IMG/VR virus record: IMGVR_UViG_3300045988_021594
Source of the DNA: a virus
Reading direction: 5' to 3' (one strand)
Length of the DNA stretch: 42,278 nt
Shown here: in pieces, positions 1-42,278 of the stretch
How the letters are laid out: the number at the start of each line of letters is the position of its first letter
Position numbering within the stretch: the stretch's first letter is position 1
Made by a program: the position numbers and the translations under genes
The notes under the pieces: generated by a model
What the model saw: only the letters and a program-made list of their open reading frames with translations
The model's database searches: none
Told to the model about the DNA's origin: nothing

Positions 1-119
1 CATCACTCTGGCTCTGATCGTCGAGAACCAGCTTGGTGGTGATGGTCTCTTCAGCATCGTCGCAACACCGGACAAGATCACCGTCCTCGGTGATGTGTGC
101 GTAGATCGTCCAGATCTGG
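1..119. repeat. Terminal direct repeat, copy 1 (identical to 42160-42278)
   Basis: Compared base by base; identity runs exactly to both window edges. Confidence 0.95.
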
Positions 120-214
120 CAATCACGGCTTGCGGATTCAAAATCCTCATATTCAATCTCGGTGCCGTTCTCCATGACCTTGGTTGCGAACTCTTCAGCA
201 GTCAGCTTTTTCAT
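1..214 (-). CDS. Small hyper-acidic protein A, N-terminal part (gene wraps the circular junction; the rest is at 42065-42159)
   Basis: ATG at 214-212 is preceded by GGAGGTAACTAAA. The frame continues across the junction to TAA at 42065-42067, giving 309 nt or 102 aa, about 28 of them D/E by my count. Confidence 0.7.
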   Translation of the reverse strand, partial: MKKLTAEEFATKVMENGTEIEYEDFESASRDCQIWTIYAHITEDGDLVRCCDDAEETITTKLVLDDQSQSD

Positions 215-260
215 TTTAGTTACCTCCAGTTGATTGTGTGTGGTGTCTTTCACTGTCTAT

Positions 261-321
261 ATTATACGCTCATTGAGCGTATTTATCAAGGCTTTTTGCG
301 AATTTTTATGCTCATTGAGCG
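261..321 (-). promoter_or_regulatory. Promoter P_A with two palindromic operator copies
   Basis: Minus strand reads TTGATA (289-284), 17 nt, TATAAT (266-261). The perfect palindrome CGCTCA-A-TGAGCG lies at 267-279 inside the spacer, with a 12/13 copy at 309-321. Confidence 0.7.
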
Positions 322-322
322 T

Positions 323-366
323 AAAAAATCTCTAGCAGCCTTGTGCCAGACCGCCAGAGATTTTTT
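323..366. terminator. Bidirectional intrinsic terminator downstream of the HTH gene
   Basis: AAAAAATCTCT (323-333) pairs with AGAGATTTTTT (356-366). An A-run and a T-run flank the stem. Confidence 0.6.
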
Positions 367-415
367 ACTTTTTCTTCAGCTCTTCAAGGGCTTTTTTAGA
401 TCATCCTGCCATCCA

Positions 416-739
416 TTACAGAAGTCCATAATGCTCTGCCAGCAAAAAGCGGATGTATACAGGGCACTCTCTTGTCTCACCGCACCAGCCTTGCAGTGTA
501 CGATAAGGAACCCCGGCCATCTTGGAAAAGGCCGTCTGCGTGAGGCCTGTCTCTTCCACCATCTCTTTAAAAGACATGTGGGCGATCTCCCAAATATTTT
601 CAAGCTTAGTCTTTTGAGCGTCCAGATCAACGCACCCAGAGGCATCGTCCTCCACGCTGAGGGTGACGTTGTTCAAAAAGATTTCTTTAACGGCCTTTGG
701 GTCAGATGCCATGACGAAAAGTTCAGCTGCATTATACAT
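416..739 (-). CDS. HTH (XRE/Cro-like) DNA-binding protein
   Basis: AAGGAGA SD lies upstream of the ATG. A helix-turn-helix (LTQTAFSKMAGVPYRTLQGW) sits in the C-terminal half. Confidence 0.75.
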   Translation of the reverse strand: MYNAAELFVMASDPKAVKEIFLNNVTLSVEDDASGCVDLDAQKTKLENIWEIAHMSFKEMVEETGLTQTAFSKMAGVPYRTLQGWCGETRECPVYIRFLLAEHYGLL

Positions 740-764
740 TGCAATTCTCCTTTTTTGATTGATA

Positions 765-806
765 AATTCCCCGGGTGGTGTTTGCGCATCACTCGGGGAT
801 TTTTTA
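765..806. terminator. Hairpin plus T-tract, copy 1 of a duplicated terminator (copy 2 at 42018-42062)
   Basis: TCCCCGGGTG pairs with CACTCGGGGA (one mismatch) and is followed by TTTTTT on the plus strand. Only a weak T-run follows on the minus strand, so read-through into 416-739 is plausible. Confidence 0.5.
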
Positions 807-807
807 T

Positions 808-981
808 TTACTGCTCGCTCTCTTCAAACATTTTGAAATATTTCTCGTACTCTTCCCACTCTTCGGGATCTGCCGGGTCATCACAAGCCGGGCTGCAATA
901 CTCTGCAATCCACTCTTCCCTGTCAGTGCTTCTCCAACCGCCATCGAACATCGCTGCTGCACTGCTGTAATAATCTTTCAT
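808..981 (-). CDS. Small hyper-acidic protein B (57 aa)
   Basis: The internal ATG (M14 of track ORF 808-1020) is preceded by GGAGGTAACTAAA. 17 of 57 residues are D/E. Confidence 0.7.
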   Translation of the reverse strand: MKDYYSSAAAMFDGGWRSTDREEWIAEYCSPACDDPADPEEWEEYEKYFKMFEESEQ

Positions 982-1027
982 TTTAGTTACCTCCATTTGA
1001 TTGTGTGTGGTATCTTTCACTGTCTAT

Positions 1028-1088
1028 ATTATACGCTCATTGAGCGTATTTGTCAAGGTTTTTCACGAATTTTTATGCTCATTGAGCG
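1028..1088 (-). promoter_or_regulatory. Promoter P_B with two palindromic operator copies (duplicate of P_A)
   Basis: Minus strand reads TTGACA (1056-1051), 17 nt, TATAAT (1033-1028). Operator copies lie at 1034-1046 and 1076-1088. Confidence 0.75.
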
Positions 1089-1137
1089 CCTTTTTTCGCC
1101 TGCGCGGCCCCGCTGCCGTGCGGGCGCTTTTTTATTT

Positions 1138-4867: not shown

Positions 4868-4897
4868 ATAATCTAACAAACAATCTAACAAATCAAT
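4868..4897 (+). repeat. attP arm repeat, copy 2 (ATAATCTAACAAACAATCTAACAAATCAAT)
   Basis: Direct repeat of 4675-4703; it overlaps the integrase stop codon. Confidence 0.6.
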
Positions 4898-6026
4898 ACT
4901 TCATTTTTTGCATTTCCCGCAACAGATAAGCCGGGTCATTGTGGGAGACGTACTTGTTGGCTGTGGTGGAGAAATTTTTGTGACCCAAGATTGCCTGCAC
5001 GGCGGTCTTTTCCAGGCCGCACTCCACCATCTTGCTGCTGGCTGTATGGCGCAGCGTGTGCGGATGCACGCCCTCTATATGGCATTCCTGCATCAACGCC
5101 CGGAACTTTGTAGCCACGTTACGCTTGTCCAGCTTTGTGCCGGCTTTGGACGGTATCAGCCATTCACACCCGCTGTCCATCATCCAAAAGGCAATGATCT
5201 TGTAAATGGGCTCAAGGATGGGGATGATGCGGTTCTTGCCCGCTTCTGTCTTTTCACCGCCCTGCATGTACCGCTCTTTCAGGTGCACGTCCTCGCAGCG
5301 CATGGAAAGCAGCTCGTCAATGCGCATACCGGTATAAAGCAGCACCATTGCGATTTGCGCCGTCTGCCCAAACTTTGGGTCGTCTTGTCGGCCGCTGATC
5401 CGCTCGATCTCTTGGGCGGTCAGGGTGCGTTCTTCCTTGCCTGTAGCCGCTGGGAGCTGCAAGAGCATAGCATAGTTTTTGTTTATGATGTCCTGCGCCA
5501 TAGCCCACTCGCAGATCTGGCTGAAAAGTGTGCGCTGCTTTTCGCAGGAGCTGCGTGAAAGGCCCTTTTCCACCATTGCGTCAATGACCTGTTGATAATC
5601 TGCCGCTTTCAAGTCCCGCAATTGTCGGTCGTATAGCGGCGCAGCCTTTGCATAGGCCAGCTCGTACCCCTTTTTCATGTCAGTACTGAGCTTGTCAAAC
5701 TTGGGCTGCACTTTCCATTGGGCGTAGGCATCCGCAAAAGTGCATTTCAGACGCGCTGCGGGGGTGTTCTGGGCGTTGTAAGCGTCCAGTGCTTGTACTG
5801 CTTCGCCCGGCGTCGCAAACGTCCCCAGAACGTCTCGCTTGGCTGTCAGGGCCACATACGGCTTTGACCTCGTCCCGATCAGTTTATAAACGCTGCCGCT
5901 GCCCTTTGGGCGGCGGCGTTTTTTTCTTTGCTGCGGGGCGGCTTCCGGCTGCTTCTTCCCGCACCACGGACAAAAAGAAGCACCATCCGGGATCTCTTTC
6001 CGGCAGCATGGTCTCACGCATTTCAT
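4893..6026 (-). CDS. int: Tyrosine recombinase (phage integrase) with an N-terminal Cys4 zinc ribbon
   Basis: C-terminal HPHTLRHT, LGH and NKYVSH motifs match the R-H-R-Y catalytic set. The N-terminus reads CVRPCC...CPWCG. It lies adjacent to attP. Confidence 0.9.
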   Translation of the reverse strand: MKCVRPCCRKEIPDGASFCPWCGKKQPEAAPQQRKKRRRPKGSGSVYKLIGTRSKPYVALTAKRDVLGTFATPGEAVQALDAYNAQNTPAARLKCTFADAYAQWKVQPKFDKLSTDMKKGYELAYAKAAPLYDRQLRDLKAADYQQVIDAMVEKGLSRSSCEKQRTLFSQICEWAMAQDIINKNYAMLLQLPAATGKEERTLTAQEIERISGRQDDPKFGQTAQIAMVLLYTGMRIDELLSMRCEDVHLKERYMQGGEKTEAGKNRIIPILEPIYKIIAFWMMDSGCEWLIPSKAGTKLDKRNVATKFRALMQECHIEGVHPHTLRHTASSKMVECGLEKTAVQAILGHKNFSTTANKYVSHNDPAYLLREMQKMKY

Positions 6027-6029
6027 GGC

Positions 6030-6617
6030 TTACTCCTTTTTCTGCCCGATATATCCGAATGCGCCATTTTCAGCAGCGGCTCTTCCGGCCTTGTAGTTGA
6101 TCTTCAAGTCGTCAATGGGAGGGTGCGGAGCGTCCGGGCATGGGTCTAATCCCATGCTCTGGGCAAAGTTGTATTGGTCGATGATTGTTCCGCATACGCT
6201 GACCCGGTTATTGAGCGGGCAGTGCAAGTTGGCTGCCACCTCGGAGATCACCGCGGGCGGGCTGCTGCCGTGACTGCCTTTCAGTATGAAGAGAAGCAGC
6301 CTTTTTGTCAGCGGCGGCAGTTTTACCACGATACGGCGCAACTCCGCGTTTAGCTCATCGTCGGCCTTTCCGTCATCCGGCACTTTGTACAGATCCGGGT
6401 GGGTCATCTCCATAAACACCGTGATGGGCGACACCCCACACGCCGTGCACCAGTCCATGATCTCGTCACTGTCCGGGCTGGTGCAGCCTTTTTCCCAGCT
6501 CTGCACGGTGCGTTCTCCTTTTTCGATGCGCCTTGCGATCTCCACTTGGCTCAGGCCGGCAGACACCCGTGCTTTTGCAATCGCTTTCCCGATTTGGCTC
6601 GCCGTAAAATAACTCAT
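6030..6617 (-). CDS. XRE-family HTH regulator co-transcribed with the integrase
   Basis: GGGGG SD precedes M33 of track ORF 6030-6713. HTH reads LSQVEIARRIEKGERTVQSWEKG. The C-terminal domain shows no S24 peptidase motifs that I can see. Confidence 0.8.
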   Translation of the reverse strand: MSYFTASQIGKAIAKARVSAGLSQVEIARRIEKGERTVQSWEKGCTSPDSDEIMDWCTACGVSPITVFMEMTHPDLYKVPDDGKADDELNAELRRIVVKLPPLTKRLLLFILKGSHGSSPPAVISEVAANLHCPLNNRVSVCGTIIDQYNFAQSMGLDPCPDAPHPPIDDLKINYKAGRAAAENGAFGYIGQKKE

Positions 6618-6655
6618 ACTTTCGCCCCCATAATTCCGGTGTGTTTTTAACAAAA

Positions 6656-6729
6656 AATGGCGCAGAAAAAATCCGCGCCATTCGACAAATTTTATCCGTA
6701 TTTTATTTTCCAATGGCGCATGGTAGAAT
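6656..6729. promoter_or_regulatory. Divergent control region: AATGGCGC inverted repeat plus a half-site abutting an extended -10
   Basis: AATGGCGC lies at 6656-6663, GCGCCATT at 6675-6682 and AATGGCGC at 6712-6719. TGgTAGAAT lies at 6721-6729. Confidence 0.45.
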
Positions 6730-9270: not shown

Positions 9271-9382
9271 GACTGAAATCCTCGCCGGAAATGAGGCAGA
9301 CTTCGTGCTGGTTCATTTTCCCGTTGTGCTTCTCCATATATAATAGGAGAGCCAGGCTCTTTTTGTCCAAAAACTCAGCCAT
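9041..9382 (-). CDS. Small winged-helix-like protein (YjcQ/MarR-like pattern)
   Basis: ATGGCTGA start/stop overlap with the upstream XRE gene. The pattern LLLYMEKHNG...YIQNLKSRGLI...YSLPLAGEAYLQE is wHTH-like. Confidence 0.65.
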   Translation of the reverse strand: MAEFLDKKSLALLLYMEKHNGKMNQHEVCLISGEDFSLNGQNRYIQNLKSRGLIDERRKEYIPDGVGGFLPSEYIYSLPLAGEAYLQELRADRENQILQAALDLLVSIFGQKF

Positions 9383-9740
9383 TGGAGTTTTCCTTTCTTG
9401 AAGCAACCTTAAATTTTGCATATTGCAGCACGTCAGCAAGCTCCTGTTCGGTCAACTGATCGAGCACGGCGTTGAATGCTGCATCCAGTCCACTCTCTTC
9501 ACTGGGAGTGGGCTTTTCTTTTTGCTCGTTTTCGCCGGTGAGCTCTTTAGAATCAACTCCAAAGTAGGTTGCGATTTTTTCAACGGTTGCTTTTCGCGGG
9601 GCGCTTCCATTTGCCCATCTTGTTACAGAAGAGCGCTGAAGCCCCATATCCTCTGCTACGGCAGATGGCGACTTGCCAATGCTATTGCAAAGGCGAACGA
9701 AGTTCAAATAGAACAAAACACCACCCCCGTTTTTGTGCAA
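9375..9740 (-). CDS. CI-like XRE-family repressor (start uncertain: TTG at 9740 or TTG at 9716)
   Basis: HTH reads SPSAVAEDMGLQRSSVTRWANG. It is divergent from the Cro-like gene across an operator-rich region. Confidence 0.8.
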   Translation of the reverse strand: MHKNGGGVLFYLNFVRLCNSIGKSPSAVAEDMGLQRSSVTRWANGSAPRKATVEKIATYFGVDSKELTGENEQKEKPTPSEESGLDAAFNAVLDQLTEQELADVLQYAKFKVASRKENSNG

Positions 9741-10312: not shown

Positions 10313-10516
10313 GTGCCCGAACCGTGGACTGGCCGTTTGATTGGCCGAATGCACAACAACAAAGTCACGCTGGAACAGCTTGCCGCTTATCTGGGCTGGA
10401 CAAAGAGCTACTGCTCGATGATCCTGAATGGCCAGCGCAAGCCGCGCGGCATCCGCGAGAAAATGGAAGCCGCCGTCAGCGAGATCATCAAGGAAAAGGA
10501 GGACAAAACGGCATGA
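10313..10516 (+). CDS. Cro-like HTH regulator
   Basis: GGGAGGTGG SD precedes the GTG. HTH reads VTLEQLAAYLGWTKSYCSMILNGQRKP. Confidence 0.8.
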   Translation: MPEPWTGRLIGRMHNNKVTLEQLAAYLGWTKSYCSMILNGQRKPRGIREKMEAAVSEIIKEKEDKTA

Positions 10517-11292
10517 GCGAATTAAACAATCTCATCCCCATTAGCTACGACAACCCGGAGCGCCCCACGGTGAGCGGCCGGGAGCTGCACGAGTTTCTTG
10601 GCGTCAAATCCAGATATAATGACTGGTTTAACAACATGACTGCCTACGGATTTGCCGAAAATATCGATTATGTGTCGCTTACTAAAAATTTAGTAAACGG
10701 TGGACGCAGCACCGACCACCAACTCACCATCCCAATGGCCAAAGAGCTCTGCATGATCCAGCGCAACGAGCGTGGCAAGCAAGCCCGGCAGTATTTCTTG
10801 GCCGTGGAGGCGCAGTGGAACAGCCCGGAAGCGGTCATGCGCCGGGCGGTGCTTATCGCCCAGAAGCAGAACGACCAGCTCAAGGCCGTAAACAAACAGC
10901 TTTTGGCTGAGAACAGCGACCTGAAGCCAGATGCAGAGTATGCCAGGGCCGTGTGCATTGGCGATAACTGCCGGACGGCTACCAGCATTGCAAAGGATTA
11001 CGGCATGAGCGGCGAGAAGCTGAACAGCATCCTGCACGGGCTGAAAATCCAGTGGAAGAACAGCGACGGGCAGTGGGTGTTATACGCAAAGTATAGCGGA
11101 AAAGGTTACACCAAAAACCGCAAAGGCCGTCCGTTTGAGCACAACAGTGGCAAGATCACCACGCCAAACACCACCGTTTGGACGGAAGCGGGCCAGCGGT
11201 TCATTTATGAGCAGCTCAAGGCCATTGGCCTGACGCCCAGCATCGACCACAAAGAGAATGTGGAACAGACCACGTTTGAAATGGGTGCGTAA
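10513..11292 (+). CDS. Phage antirepressor (AntA-like N-terminal domain plus KilAC-like C-terminal domain)
   Basis: ATGA overlap with the upstream gene (M64 of track ORF 10324-11292). Recognisable segments are RELHEFLGVKSRYNDWF...MAKELCMIQRNERGKQARQYF and, C-terminally, TSIAKDYGMSGEKLNSIL. Confidence 0.8.
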   Translation: MSELNNLIPISYDNPERPTVSGRELHEFLGVKSRYNDWFNNMTAYGFAENIDYVSLTKNLVNGGRSTDHQLTIPMAKELCMIQRNERGKQARQYFLAVEAQWNSPEAVMRRAVLIAQKQNDQLKAVNKQLLAENSDLKPDAEYARAVCIGDNCRTATSIAKDYGMSGEKLNSILHGLKIQWKNSDGQWVLYAKYSGKGYTKNRKGRPFEHNSGKITTPNTTVWTEAGQRFIYEQLKAIGLTPSIDHKENVEQTTFEMGA

Positions 11293-12314: not shown

Positions 12315-12971
12315 ATGAGCATGAGTGAAAAGATCATCGCCTACAAGGCCATGGACAAAAATATGCAGTGCCGTGGCAAACAGTACGAGGTGGGTAAGAC
12401 CTACCACGAGGAAAAGGCGGACTGCTGCCACGCTGGTATGCACGCCTGCGAGAACCCGCTGGATGTGCTGCACTACTACCCGTTGAAGGATAGCCCGCGC
12501 TTTTTTGAGGTCGAGTGCGGCGGGAACGTGGATAAAAGCGAAGAGGACAGTAAGCTGGCCTGCACTGAGCTGACGGTAAAAGGTGAAGTGAATTTTGCAG
12601 GGCTTGTAAAAGCTGCGGTGAATGCCGTTTTTAATCGGGTGAAAGGCAAAGAACCTTTTTCCAGCGGCTATTCCAGCACGGCGGGTTCCAGCGGCTATTC
12701 CAGCACGGCGGGTTCCAGCGGCGATTACAGCACGGCGGCAGCCACTGGGGCTTATTGCAGCGCAAAAGCAGACGGCAAAGATAGCATTGCCGTTGTAAAC
12801 GGCGTTTGCGGTAAGGCGTGCGGCGCACTTGGCTGCTATCTGGTGCTGACTGAGTACGATGATTACGGCCACATGATCTGTGCCAAAATGGCCCTCGTAG
12901 ACGGTTCTTCAATCAGAGAAAACGTTTATTATACCCTCAAAAATGGCGAGTTTGTGGAGGTCAATCCGTGA
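12315..12971 (+). CDS. Conserved-looking phage protein with an N-terminal Cys/His domain and a Ser/Gly/Thr repeat core (start may be the ATG at 12321)
   Basis: AAGGAAGG SD. Motifs AYKAMDKNMQCRG...CCHAGMHACENPLDV are present. The repeat is SSGYSSTAG. Confidence 0.75.
   Translation: MSMSEKIIAYKAMDKNMQCRGKQYEVGKTYHEEKADCCHAGMHACENPLDVLHYYPLKDSPRFFEVECGGNVDKSEEDSKLACTELTVKGEVNFAGLVKAAVNAVFNRVKGKEPFSSGYSSTAGSSGYSSTAGSSGDYSTAAATGAYCSAKADGKDSIAVVNGVCGKACGALGCYLVLTEYDDYGHMICAKMALVDGSSIRENVYYTLKNGEFVEVNP
12660..12740 (+). repeat. 27-bp in-frame tandem repeat (two exact units plus one diverged unit)
   Basis: TCCAGCGGCTATTCCAGCACGGCGGGT lies at 12660-12686 and 12687-12713. A diverged third unit follows. 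Confidence 0.85.
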
Positions 12972-21592: not shown

Positions 21593-21663
21593 GCCGCCTG
21601 AGCGCAGTTTGGAGCGCGTGTCAGCTGAAATATTGCTGGCTGGTTCGAGCCCTGCAAGCGGCA
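21593..21663 (+). other. Degenerate tRNA-like element (pseudo-tRNA)
   Basis: The acceptor pairs 6 of 7 positions, the D-arm GCGC/GCGC is intact, and the T-arm and 3' acceptor are 22/22 identical to the tRNA at 29518-29539. The anticodon arm does not fold, and the element ends ATAT instead of CCA. Confidence 0.55.
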
Positions 21664-29466: not shown

Positions 29467-29542
29467 GCCGCTTTCGCACAACTGGTAGTGCTCCCGGCTC
29501 ATAACCGGGCAGTTGCAGGTTCGAGCCCTGCAAGCGGCACCA
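29467..29542 (+). tRNA. tRNA with anticodon CAT (elongator Met, or Ile2 if modified with lysidine)
   Basis: Full cloverleaf folded by hand: acceptor GCCGCTT/AAGCGGC, D-arm GCAC-AACTGGTA-GTGC, anticodon arm CCCGG-CTCATAA-CCGGG, variable loop CAGTT, T-arm GCAGG-TTCGAGC-CCTGC, then A-CCA. Length is 76 nt. Confidence 0.9.
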
Positions 29543-41617: not shown

Positions 41618-41800
41618 ATGGCAAGCACTACATACGAGCAGAAACGATTTTGCGAAATCAAGAGATGCGGCGAAATTGACCATCTCGGTAACGTCCCCGT
41701 GATGGTGCGCAATGCCGGACAGCTGCCGCAGCCTTTCTGGCTCGGTGCTGCCTGTGGCGGCGGCTCGTGTAGTGCTGCCACTGTGCCTGCAAGGACTTGA
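41618..41800 (+). CDS. ORF with a strong SD, probably the N-terminal part of a frameshifted regulator
   Basis: TAAGGAGGA SD lies 5 nt before the ATG. The C-terminal 20 aa are low-complexity (AACGGGSCSAA). Confidence 0.4.
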   Translation: MASTTYEQKRFCEIKRCGEIDHLGNVPVMVRNAGQLPQPFWLGAACGGGSCSAATVPART

Positions 41801-41978
41801 TCGACAGCAGATGACAGCCGCCATCAAAAACGCACCGCTTGGGAGGGTTGACCGAAAGATAGCCTTACTGCGGTACGTTGAGCGGCTCCCGCAGGCCGAC
41901 ATTGCAGCACGCACCCACTACTCCCGGCAGGCGGTAAGCTATCGCCTGCAAAGCATTGATAAAATACTGGATATGTGA
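41712..41978 (+). CDS. Sigma-region-4/LuxR-like HTH protein (start unresolved; no SD of its own)
   Basis: HTH-like segments are RVVLPLCLQGLDRQQMTAAI and IALLRYVERLPQADIAARTHYSRQAVSYRL. It is in the +1 frame relative to 41618-41800. Confidence 0.5.
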   Translation: MPDSCRSLSGSVLPVAAARVVLPLCLQGLDRQQMTAAIKNAPLGRVDRKIALLRYVERLPQADIAARTHYSRQAVSYRLQSIDKILDM

Positions 41979-42017
41979 TATACTATCTGCACACCTCCCT
42001 GTGAGGTGTCTTTCACT

Positions 42018-42062
42018 AAAAATCCCCCGGGTGGTGTTCGCGCATCACTCGGGGGATTTTTT
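42018..42062. terminator. Bidirectional intrinsic terminator (copy 2) closing the late operon and acidic gene A
   Basis: AATCCCCCGGGTG pairs with CACTCGGGGGATT (one mismatch), with an A5 run upstream and a T6 run downstream. Confidence 0.7.
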
Positions 42063-42064
42063 AT

Positions 42065-42278
42065 TTACTCCATGTCCTCCAGCACTTTGAGGTACTTTGG
42101 ATAGAGCTCATCAATGATGACCTGCTTTTCCATGTCGTCCAACTCGCCGTTCATGAGGGCATCACTCTGGCTCTGATCGTCGAGAACCAGCTTGGTGGTG
42201 ATGGTCTCTTCAGCATCGTCGCAACACCGGACAAGATCACCGTCCTCGGTGATGTGTGCGTAGATCGTCCAGATCTGG
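42065..42278 (-). CDS. Small hyper-acidic protein A, C-terminal part (continues from 1-214 across the junction)
   Basis: TAA lies at 42065-42067. The frame is contiguous with the ATG at 214 once the 119-bp overlap is collapsed. Confidence 0.7.
   Translation of the reverse strand, partial: QIWTIYAHITEDGDLVRCCDDAEETITTKLVLDDQSQSDALMNGELDDMEKQVIIDELYPKYLKVLEDME
42160..42278. repeat. Terminal direct repeat, copy 2 (identical to 1-119)
   Basis: Compared base by base. Confidence 0.95.

Follow-up and report, generated by a model that had tools for sequence, protein, structure and literature searches.

A probable acr-aca-type anti-defense locus with two transcription units in a temperate Faecalibacterium phage

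Introduction

Why would a phage place two nearly identical promoter-operator cassettes in front of two different, tiny and strongly acidic proteins? The question is raised by IMG/VR virus record IMGVR_UViG_3300045988_021594, a stretch of 42,278 nucleotides (nt) that was analyzed in full and is called the window here. Its two ends overlap by 119 nt (1–119 = 42160–42278), which leaves a unit of 42,159 base pairs (bp) with 53.5% G+C, and the window represents a whole phage contig that is circular or terminally redundant. The phage is temperate and its host is Faecalibacterium. The locus in question is a minus-strand island of three genes that runs from 1090 across the junction to 42018, antisense to its plus-strand neighbors. 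It holds two small open reading frames, ORF1 and ORF2, and between them the gene of a helix-turn-helix (HTH) protein (416–739). An earlier reading of the letters alone (the sequence-only reading) had described the cassettes and likened the small proteins to DNA-mimicking inhibitors of restriction or of CRISPR.

The answer proposed here starts from the operator, which is identical to the experimentally defined site of Aca10, an anti-CRISPR-associated (Aca) repressor of an anti-CRISPR (Acr) operon in Pseudomonas. The island is probably an acr-aca-type anti-defense locus with two transcription units, working by the mechanism set out in the Discussion. We hold its regulatory architecture with high confidence; the function of the two small proteins is graded separately below.

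Results

Both promoters carry the Aca10 operator

The duplicated segments span 209–321 and 976–1088, 113 nt each and 95% identical, with about seven differences including an edge base; the sequence-only reading had drawn them at 211–322 and 978–1089, and alignment bears it out with a small shift. Each copy presents, in this order, a 12/13 match to a palindrome, a −35 hexamer, a 17-nt spacer, a −10 hexamer, a 46-nt leader, the Shine-Dalgarno (SD) sequence GGAGG and an ATG. As had been claimed, the minus-strand promoters are of the sigma-A type. P2 (1056→1028), with TTGACA at 1056–1051 and TATAAT at 1033–1028, scores 12/12, and P1 (289→261), with TTGATA at 289–284 and TATAAT at 266–261, scores 11/12. 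The shared leader and SD also proved correct: the conserved, A/C-rich leader of cassette 2 (982–1027, SD at 994–990) and that of cassette 1 (215–260, SD at 227–223), both on the minus strand, are the same 46-nt element with the same GGAGG. A structured leader RNA, considered by analogy with Aca2 and Aca1, was rejected on a minimum free energy of about −2 kcal/mol and no match in Rfam.

The palindrome is found where the earlier reading had put it. Its exact core, CGCTCAATGAGCG, lies inside the spacer of both promoters (267–279 and 1034–1046), and a 12/13 copy lies upstream of each on the minus strand, GCGCTCAATGAGCA at 1076–1088 (P2 distal operator) and ACGCTCAATGAGCA at 309–321 (P1 distal operator). 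The distance between distal and proximal sites, center to center, is 42 bp, or four helical turns, in both cassettes. At two or fewer mismatches there are 10 raw matches to the palindrome against 1.7 expected, a number reached by none of 100 shuffles, and only these four are good sites in the 42 kb. A genome-wide search that included the lysogeny-switch region found no palindrome outside the cassettes.

The minimal site of Aca10, as defined by electrophoretic mobility shift assay, is 5'-ATACGCTCATTGAGCGTAT-3' and is located between the −35 and −10 boxes of the acrIC7-acrIC6-aca10 promoter, extending into both (PMC9410881). Aca10 (PDB code 7XI5) is the regulator of this operon in Pseudomonas citronellolis (PMC9410881; PMC7913775). 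The 19-bp operator ATACGCTCATTGAGCGTAT, of which CGCTCAATGAGCG is the 13-nt core palindrome, is matched exactly at 264–282 (P1 proximal operator) and at 1031–1049 (P2 proximal operator, ATACGCTCA(A/T)TGAGCGTAT), both on the minus strand, where 0 matches are expected. Its placement relative to the promoter hexamers is the same as in Pseudomonas, and at P2 it fills the spacer and overlaps the −10.

Scanning IMG/VR for the exact 19-mer returned 25 loci, with G+C contents from 38 to 70%. Ten of these were new to the 19-mer scan, and in six of the ten (L064, L065, L069, L070, L075 and L077) a motif scan located an Aca10-type HTH protein within about 3 kb downstream. Aca10-type proteins also lie downstream of the 19-mer in L007 and L012, as short forms of 62–64 amino acids (aa) in low-GC phages. 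Long forms of 117 aa accompany the same operator in the high-GC phages L070 and L075, and over 95 aa the window HTH protein and that of L070 share 40% identity. L065 (1774–2830, reverse strand) is the canonical Pseudomonas acrIC7-acrIC6-aca10 locus; it has the same promoter layout, its first gene is strongly acidic, and it encodes the 65-aa Aca10.

Within the Faecalibacterium-phage family, variation of the operator half-site is symmetrical and is largely matched by changes at residue 84 of the HTH protein. CGCTCA goes with glycine in many loci, CACGCA with aspartate (L001 and L060) and CACCCA with asparagine (L036–L055); L038, with N84, has a mixed site. With a small number of variants that share descent, this covariation is support short of proof. 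An independent report describes covariation in the Aca10 DNA motif (PMC13551039).

The HTH gene encodes a predicted Aca10-like repressor

The product of the minus-strand gene at 416–739 is a protein of 107 aa with its HTH at about 58–95. A search of the PDB with the domain profile of its family gave Aca10 (7XI5) as the best natural match (E 4.2e-4), and hhalign paired the window family with canonical Aca10 at 93% probability (E 3.2e-7; columns 58–95 against Aca10 12–49). Single-sequence searches of Pfam, PHROGs, NCBIfam, PADLOC and PDB returned a weak HTH_3 match only. The residues by which Aca10 reads DNA are Q22, Q37 and R44, as established by mutagenesis (PMC9410881). Aca10 Q22, R34, Q37 and R44 align to Q68, R80, Q83 and R90 of the window protein; the family alignment shows no variation at R80, Q83 and R90 and almost none at Q68. 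Aca10 Q38 aligns to G84, the specificity position discussed above. The protein departs from the single-domain format of about 65 aa in its length of 107 aa and in the location of its HTH, which falls in the C-terminal half, and this long form is common to 114 clusters. By sequence, the HTH protein is a remote long-form relative of Aca10. The suggestion that it binds the operator gains support from the identity of the Aca10 site, the remote homology, the conserved reading residues, the synteny described below and the covariation at residue 84, and we treat it as the predicted repressor.

Two predicted transcription units make up the island

The hairpins at 764–805 and 42020–42061 are copies of 42 nt with 90% identity. 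The sequence-only reading had taken them as a duplicated terminator; the duplication is real, and what fails is the role of 764–805 as the terminator of ORF2. In plus-strand RNA this hairpin folds at −26.4 kcal/mol and is followed by the T-run TTTTTTATTT; in minus-strand RNA it folds at −16 kcal/mol and is followed by AAUUUAUC, with no U-run. It is thus a strong terminator on the plus strand and, because of the weak fold and the missing U-run, a poor and leaky one for ORF2. RNA polymerase starting at P2 should therefore mostly continue past the hairpin and transcribe the HTH gene (739→416), and the gene carries an SD of its own. A separate promoter of the HTH gene was sought in the sequence and none was found. 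The gene needs none because it is part of the P2-ORF2-HTH operon, so its earlier description as a gene without an obvious promoter does not hold; behind its stop stands a strong minus-strand intrinsic terminator (about 323–367), which abuts the P1 distal operator. In the type-3 loci, the most divergent relatives, only about 14 nt, and no hairpin, separate the stop of the cargo from the start of the HTH gene, so that co-transcription is unavoidable there.

The first unit runs from P2 through ORF2, the leaky hairpin and the HTH gene to the strong terminator and is predicted to be an autorepressed operon. The second runs from P1 through ORF1 to a bidirectional terminator and is a second operon under the same predicted repressor. 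The bidirectional terminator (42020–42061) folds at −27 kcal/mol with U5 on the minus strand and at −32.6 kcal/mol with a T-run on the plus strand, and is predicted to end both the ORF1 transcript (minus) and the late/lysis operon (plus). Just past it, on the minus strand at 42005–42017, lies the leader-like 13-mer AGTGAAAGACACC (0.06 expected), a recurrence that the earlier reading had seen correctly. In L061 the arrangement "hairpin + GTGAAAGAxACCTCACA" likewise follows an ORF1-family gene, and for this reason the 13-mer is best seen as the 3' flank of the ORF1 module. Outside cassette 2 stands a further plus-strand intrinsic terminator (1097–1136; 12-bp G+C stem and T-run). The plus-strand terminators at 42020–42061, 764–805 and 1097–1136 would insulate the island from converging late transcription.

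The slot behind the promoter accepts unrelated genes

Relatives of the locus, about 60 in phages and prophages, came from a promoter-operator scan of IMG/VR, a scan with the HTH protein and a scan of GTDB genomes. The GTDB matches lay in two Faecalibacterium metagenome-assembled genomes (MAGs) and one Clostridiales MAG, and a search for relatives among annotated phage genomes matched unannotated human-fecal contigs only. Wherever the contig end spares the promoter (about 50 loci), one order is kept on one strand: operator, promoter and leader, a single small ORF, and the HTH gene, whose products are 58–99% identical.

What changes is the small ORF, the cargo of the slot, which is drawn from seven unrelated protein families. 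Three of them are acidic: the ORF2-like family (57 aa), the ORF1-like family (102–111 aa) and the family beginning MRNA(I/Y)EIAADIR (58–70 aa). The MTNFEVERME family (139 aa) has an isoelectric point (pI) of 5, the MKLSK (62 aa) and MKKYD (149–152 aa) families have pI values of 9.1 and 9.5, and the MTSFETKKK family (115–117 aa) is about neutral. The families other than those of ORF1 and ORF2, searched against PDB, Pfam and PHROGs, gave no known relatives save a sub-threshold match to Phage_Gp111. The second cassette varies as well. Among close relatives, the P1-ORF1 cassette is present in L016, L017, L022 and L023, and in L020 with a decayed −10; it is absent from L024, L026, L036 and L044, in which the terminator of the HTH gene borders on the sigma-like gene. 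In L003, L008, L010, L013 and L060 it is the ORF1 family that fills the first slot, immediately upstream of the HTH gene. ORF2 DNA is 96–98% identical in phages (for example L031 and L074) whose HTH protein is only 74–77% identical, and near-identical DNA beside a diverged HTH gene indicates, on sequence grounds, that the ORF2 cargo alone was recently transferred laterally.

Two small proteins, P0032 (L056, 630–851) and P0050, are chimeric. P0050 has the N-terminus of the ORF1 family and, joined to it, the C-terminus of the cargo family MRNA..KLGVEI. Both proteins are either real recombinants or assembly chimeras formed at shared sequence.

The modular recombination suspected from the sequence is well founded: seven cargo families occupy one frame, the second cassette is variable, chimeras occur, and the identities of ORF2 and the HTH protein are mismatched. 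Conserved DNA frames the cargo slot on both sides, with promoter, leader and SD on the 5' side and the hairpin (764–805) and the HTH gene on the 3' side, so that homologous recombination between phages could swap unrelated small genes.

ORF1 and ORF2 are small, strongly acidic and without close known relatives

ORF1 starts with the ATG at 214 on the minus strand and crosses the circular junction; codons 1–71 lie at 214–1 and the 3' part with the stop at 42065–42159. It ends at 42065 because the contig is circular with the 119-nt overlap. Its product has 102 aa with 13 aspartates and 15 glutamates (28 D/E), a pI of 4.05 and a net charge of −19. ORF2 (981→808, minus strand), the first gene of the P2 operon, encodes 57 aa with 6 aspartates and 11 glutamates (17 D/E), a pI of 4.05 and a net charge of −12. 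The sizes and acidic contents given for both in the sequence-only reading are accurate. Close variants of ORF1 differ by 2–6 synonymous and 0 non-synonymous codons each, and as their differences are synonymous only, ORF1 is clearly coding as judged from this pattern.

The ORF1 family is small (32 clusters). An exhaustive profile search of 1.84 billion proteins returned 28 representatives, all small and unnamed; a 2004-aa SpaA-domain surface protein that appeared as a relative was judged spurious. AlphaFold2 models ORF1 with a mean predicted local distance difference test score (pLDDT) of 92 and a predicted template modeling score of 0.82, as an alpha/beta core with a long C-terminal helix. The fold found no match in the PDB (best E 1.3). 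Among predicted viral structures its sole confident neighbor is an "AcrIC5-like domain-containing protein" of a gut siphovirus (probability 1.0, template modeling score 0.66, E 0.013). ORF2 has five homologue clusters only.

Context suggests a link of the cargo to anti-defense genes

AcrIC5 is a small, highly acidic inhibitor of type I-C CRISPR-Cas. The chimera P0032 carries an ORF1-family N-terminus and a C-terminus that scores above the Pfam threshold for AcrIC5 (44 bits, cut-off 27). It is the first gene after a different strong promoter that has no Aca10 operator, and it adjoins a phrog_3754-like gene, a conserved neighbor of the window locus too. Another gut-phage contig, L058, carries a bona fide member of the AcrIC5 family. 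AcrIC5 orthologues are found in Firmicutes (PMC7913775), and Faecalibacterium prausnitzii has CRISPR-Cas systems of type I-C or I-E (PMC12716062). Neighboring anti-defense operons are commonly controlled by Aca proteins, and Aca-controlled operons are enriched for counter-defense genes (PMC13551039).

The layout of the island is that of acr-aca operons: a strong promoter with inverted repeats, small cargo first, the HTH gene last, and one predicted transcript. We describe the locus as acr-aca-like because of its Aca10 operator, its Aca10-related HTH protein and its fixed gene order with swapped cargo. ORF1 and ORF2 are good candidate inhibitors because the operator in their promoters is letter for letter the Aca10 site. 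Neither is homologous to a known Acr, and the anti-defense function proposed for them is accordingly one based on context. From this analysis they are most likely inhibitors of host defense, with CRISPR-Cas of type I-C or I-E as the first candidate targets. Graded on its own, the statement that the cargo is anti-defense stands at about an even chance, and the narrower one that it is specifically anti-CRISPR is tentative and should be taken as a minority expectation. Of the likeness to anti-CRISPR or anti-restriction loci drawn earlier, the acr-aca architecture stands, and acidity as a property of the slot does not.

Genomic setting

The island has the lysis module on one side and the accessory genes near the integrase on the other, and it is read antisense to the late genes. 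Its upstream plus-strand neighbors are a GH25-like endolysin, holin-like genes and a sigma-region-4-like gene ending at 41978. The last of these belongs to a pair of overlapping plus-strand ORFs before the island (41618–41800 and 41712–41978), the second with a sigma-70 region-4-like HTH; the pair could be a single frameshifted gene or a small regulator of late genes. Downstream, from 1215, follow plus-strand phrog_3754 and phrog_21718 genes. About three tandem copies of the 11-nt unit TTTGGCACTCG lie at 1137–1170, between cassette 2 and the phrog_3754 gene, and a comparable short repeat, CAACGAAGG..., occurs at the matching place in related loci; the repeats at 1137–1170 could be a binding array of a regulator for the divergent plus-strand genes.

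Farther away, the minus strand encodes an integrase (4893–6026) and two XRE repressors (6030–6713 and 9375–9740), and the plus strand an Ant-like anti-repressor (10324–11292). Between the repressor and anti-repressor genes lies a FuFi-1 RNA (Rfam RF02986; 9945–10167, minus strand; 68.7 bits, E 1e-12, above the gathering threshold). Three tandem 27-nt repeats, TTCCAGCGGCTATTCCAGCACGGCGGG, span 12659–12739. The phage encodes a tRNA-Met (CAT) at 29467–29542 (plus strand), whose final 25 nt recur with 96% identity at 21639–21663; this copy could be an attachment-site-like sequence or a relic of recombination.

Discussion

How the locus would work

The anatomy of the island suggests a burst of cargo that is then shut off. 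On entry of the phage DNA no repressor would be present yet, and P1 and P2 would fire at full strength; the unstructured, A/C-rich leaders and the strong SD would yield both cargo proteins, ORF1 and ORF2, in a burst. The HTH protein, made from the same P2 transcript, would accumulate and dimerize. It would then bind the proximal operators of P1 and P2, occluding the spacer, the −10 and RNA polymerase, and probably also the distal operators four helical turns away, perhaps cooperatively. The result would be autorepression of P2 and repression of P1 in trans, with a low level held in the lysogen. The analysis shows the anatomy, the operator identity, the homology of the regulator, the conserved order of the genes and the exchange of cargo; from these points onward, binding, timing and cargo function are inferred.

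Several observations weigh against this reading. The likeness of the HTH protein to Aca10 is remote, 26% identity across 38 columns, and a full-length single-sequence search of the PDB with it found nothing. It carries an N-terminal extension of about 50 aa relative to the 65-aa Aca10, and it does not keep the dimer-interface residues G49 and E52, reported to be completely conserved among Aca10 homologues; V94 or Y95 and R97 stand in their places, and dimerization may use the N-terminal extension or another interface. The covariation has its exception in L061 and L062, two copies of the locus 38 kb apart in the Faecalibacterium MAG CAKTGQ010000006.1, where N84 goes with a single CACGCG-like site in a rearranged promoter; at 2520–2610 this site is joined almost directly to the conserved leader, and an ORF1-family gene lies downstream. 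Aca10 itself failed to bind the RNA motif predicted for it (PMC13551039), and with an unstructured leader here there is no support for translational control. On the side of the cargo, two families are basic and one is neutral, so acidity is no property of the slot and "DNA mimic" is no general rule for it. ORF1 and ORF2 matched nothing in Pfam, PHROGs, NCBIfam, PADLOC or PDB, and no homology to Ocr, ArdA or a demonstrated Acr, the families to which the sequence-only reading had pointed, emerged from the Pfam and PDB searches. ORF1 was rejected as a homologue of AcrIC5 (no match to PF22147 at E ≤ 1; hhalign 0.7%), and its family aligned with the AcrIC7 of P. citronellolis, the first gene of L065, below significance (hhalign 12.5%, E 0.0023), a likeness that is no more than suggestive. 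The model of ORF2 is poor (pLDDT 60), for which reason it was left out of the fold search, and its few sequence differences do not make purifying selection clear.

Alternative explanations

The alternative of most weight, which we consider improbable but not negligible, keeps the regulation as described and makes the cargo generic early or "moron" genes, acting in host takeover, antirepressor-like modulation of lysis and lysogeny, superinfection exclusion or lysogenic conversion. Such genes, too, require brief expression that is then switched off; the place of the locus between lysis and integrase is the classic one for morons; and the absence of homology between ORF1 or ORF2 and any known Acr or anti-restriction protein, the heterogeneous charge and size of the cargo, and the weak likeness of one cargo family to Streptococcus phage Gp111, of unknown function, all fit it. 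What speaks for counter-defense cargo instead is that the regulator-operator pair was characterized on a bona fide acr operon (PMC9410881), that the AcrIC5-type fusion and the AcrIC5-linked fold neighbor tie the ORF1 family to anti-CRISPR genes, and that counter-defense loci typically turn over their cargo fast within an unchanging regulatory frame (PMC13551039).

The other two alternatives question the regulator itself. The phage encodes several further HTH proteins, and the palindromes might serve a lysogeny repressor (6030–6713 or 9375–9740) or a host regulator, with the HTH protein at 416–739 merely another cargo. The strict linkage of HTH gene and operator, invariable over about 50 loci and seen again in unrelated phages of 38–70% G+C that differ in their other genes, and the absence of the palindrome from the lysogeny switch and the rest of the genome make this very unlikely; the operator type moreover tracks a residue of the recognition helix, and the DNA-contact residues of Aca10 are kept. 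A small upstream gene, a downstream XRE-type HTH gene and a palindromic autoregulated promoter are also the outline of a HigBA-like type II toxin-antitoxin module. In such a module an upstream toxin of the RelE/ParE type would co-evolve with the HTH antitoxin, whereas here the upstream partner swaps among seven unrelated families while the HTH protein stays constant. ORF1 and ORF2 are acidic and have no RelE/ParE-type sequence match, nor does ORF1 have one by fold, and the second cassette is a cargo without an antitoxin. Cargo swapping and acidic, non-toxin-like cargo contradict the toxin-antitoxin explanation, which we regard as extremely unlikely. The acr-aca-type reading, with a predicted Aca10-like repressor over two operons, is the best explanation.

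Significance

A bolder extension of the acr-aca-type reading is speculative, and we would not expect all of it to hold. In it, the Aca10 operator, promoter, leader and hairpin would form a portable "plug-and-play" frame, spread across phyla (Pseudomonadota, Bacillota and high-GC phages) with the 19-bp operator unchanged and taking up unrelated counter-defense genes by homologous recombination. ORF1 and ORF2 would be two new families of anti-CRISPR (type I-C or I-E) or other anti-defense proteins, and the N-terminal extension of the repressor could add a second activity, either sensing or that of an Acr fused to an Aca, for which AcrIIA1 and AcrIF24 are examples.

F. prausnitzii is among the most abundant and clinically discussed gut commensals. 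Our literature search found no description of an anti-CRISPR or anti-defense protein for F. prausnitzii phages. An operator with a proven binder, Aca10, marks by DNA search a slot in about 50 gut-phage genomes, and the at least seven unannotated small-protein families of that slot make a short, testable list of candidate inhibitors. Across phyla the Aca operator has stayed identical, whereas the protein is down to about 26% identity and has acquired a domain; such constancy of the DNA site is useful for motif-based discovery of anti-defense loci. The half-sites CGCTCA, CACGCA and CACCCA with G, D and N at residue 84 offer natural variants for studying or engineering HTH-operator recognition.

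Comparison with known systems

Systems of this kind have been described: an acr-aca operon under an Aca10-type repressor, and one Aca over neighboring operons. What is new is the Faecalibacterium-phage host group, the long-form regulator subfamily, the layout of two operators and two operons, the natural variants of operator and residue, and the seven unannotated cargo families, two of them in the window. No paper describing the locus was found in the literature search, which did not extend to the supplementary tables of PMC13551039.

The closest relative is the acrIC7-acrIC6-aca10 operon of P. citronellolis (Leon et al. 2021, PMC7913775; Lee et al. 2022, PMC9410881; PDB 7XI5). The two share the 19-bp operator and its placement, small acidic cargo followed by an HTH gene that closes the operon at its 3' end, and profile-level homology of the HTH proteins with the reading residues kept. 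They differ in host, which is a Bacillota (Faecalibacterium) here and Pseudomonas there, and in the repressor, which has 107 aa with an N-terminal extension here and 65 aa there and lacks G49 and E52. Each promoter here has a second operator 42 bp upstream, whereas IR1 of the Aca10 promoter is unrelated and unbound; the second operon, P1-ORF1, is predicted to be controlled in trans; and the cargo has no significant relation to AcrIC6 or AcrIC7.

With the acr promoters controlled by Aca1 and Aca2 (Birkholz 2019, PMC6765145; Shehreen 2022, PMC9410906) the locus shares a strong promoter, two inverted repeats and a predicted dimeric HTH autorepressor, but the protein families and operator sequences are others, and Aca2 and Aca1 also bind structured 5' untranslated RNA whereas the leader here is unstructured. 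The multi-operon Aca regulation of Feussner 2026 (PMC13551039) is matched in that one Aca is predicted to repress neighboring anti-defense operons with the same motif. ORF1 resembles AcrIC5 (PF22147; PDB 7YHR) in being small, acidic and phage-borne, in the P0032 fusion and in its AcrIC5-like fold neighbor, but lies outside that family by profile-profile comparison (0.7%). To Ocr and ArdA the likeness of ORF1 and ORF2 is one of bulk charge alone, with no similarity of sequence or fold: a very low pI of 4.05, a large net negative charge and, as predicted here, strong early expression.

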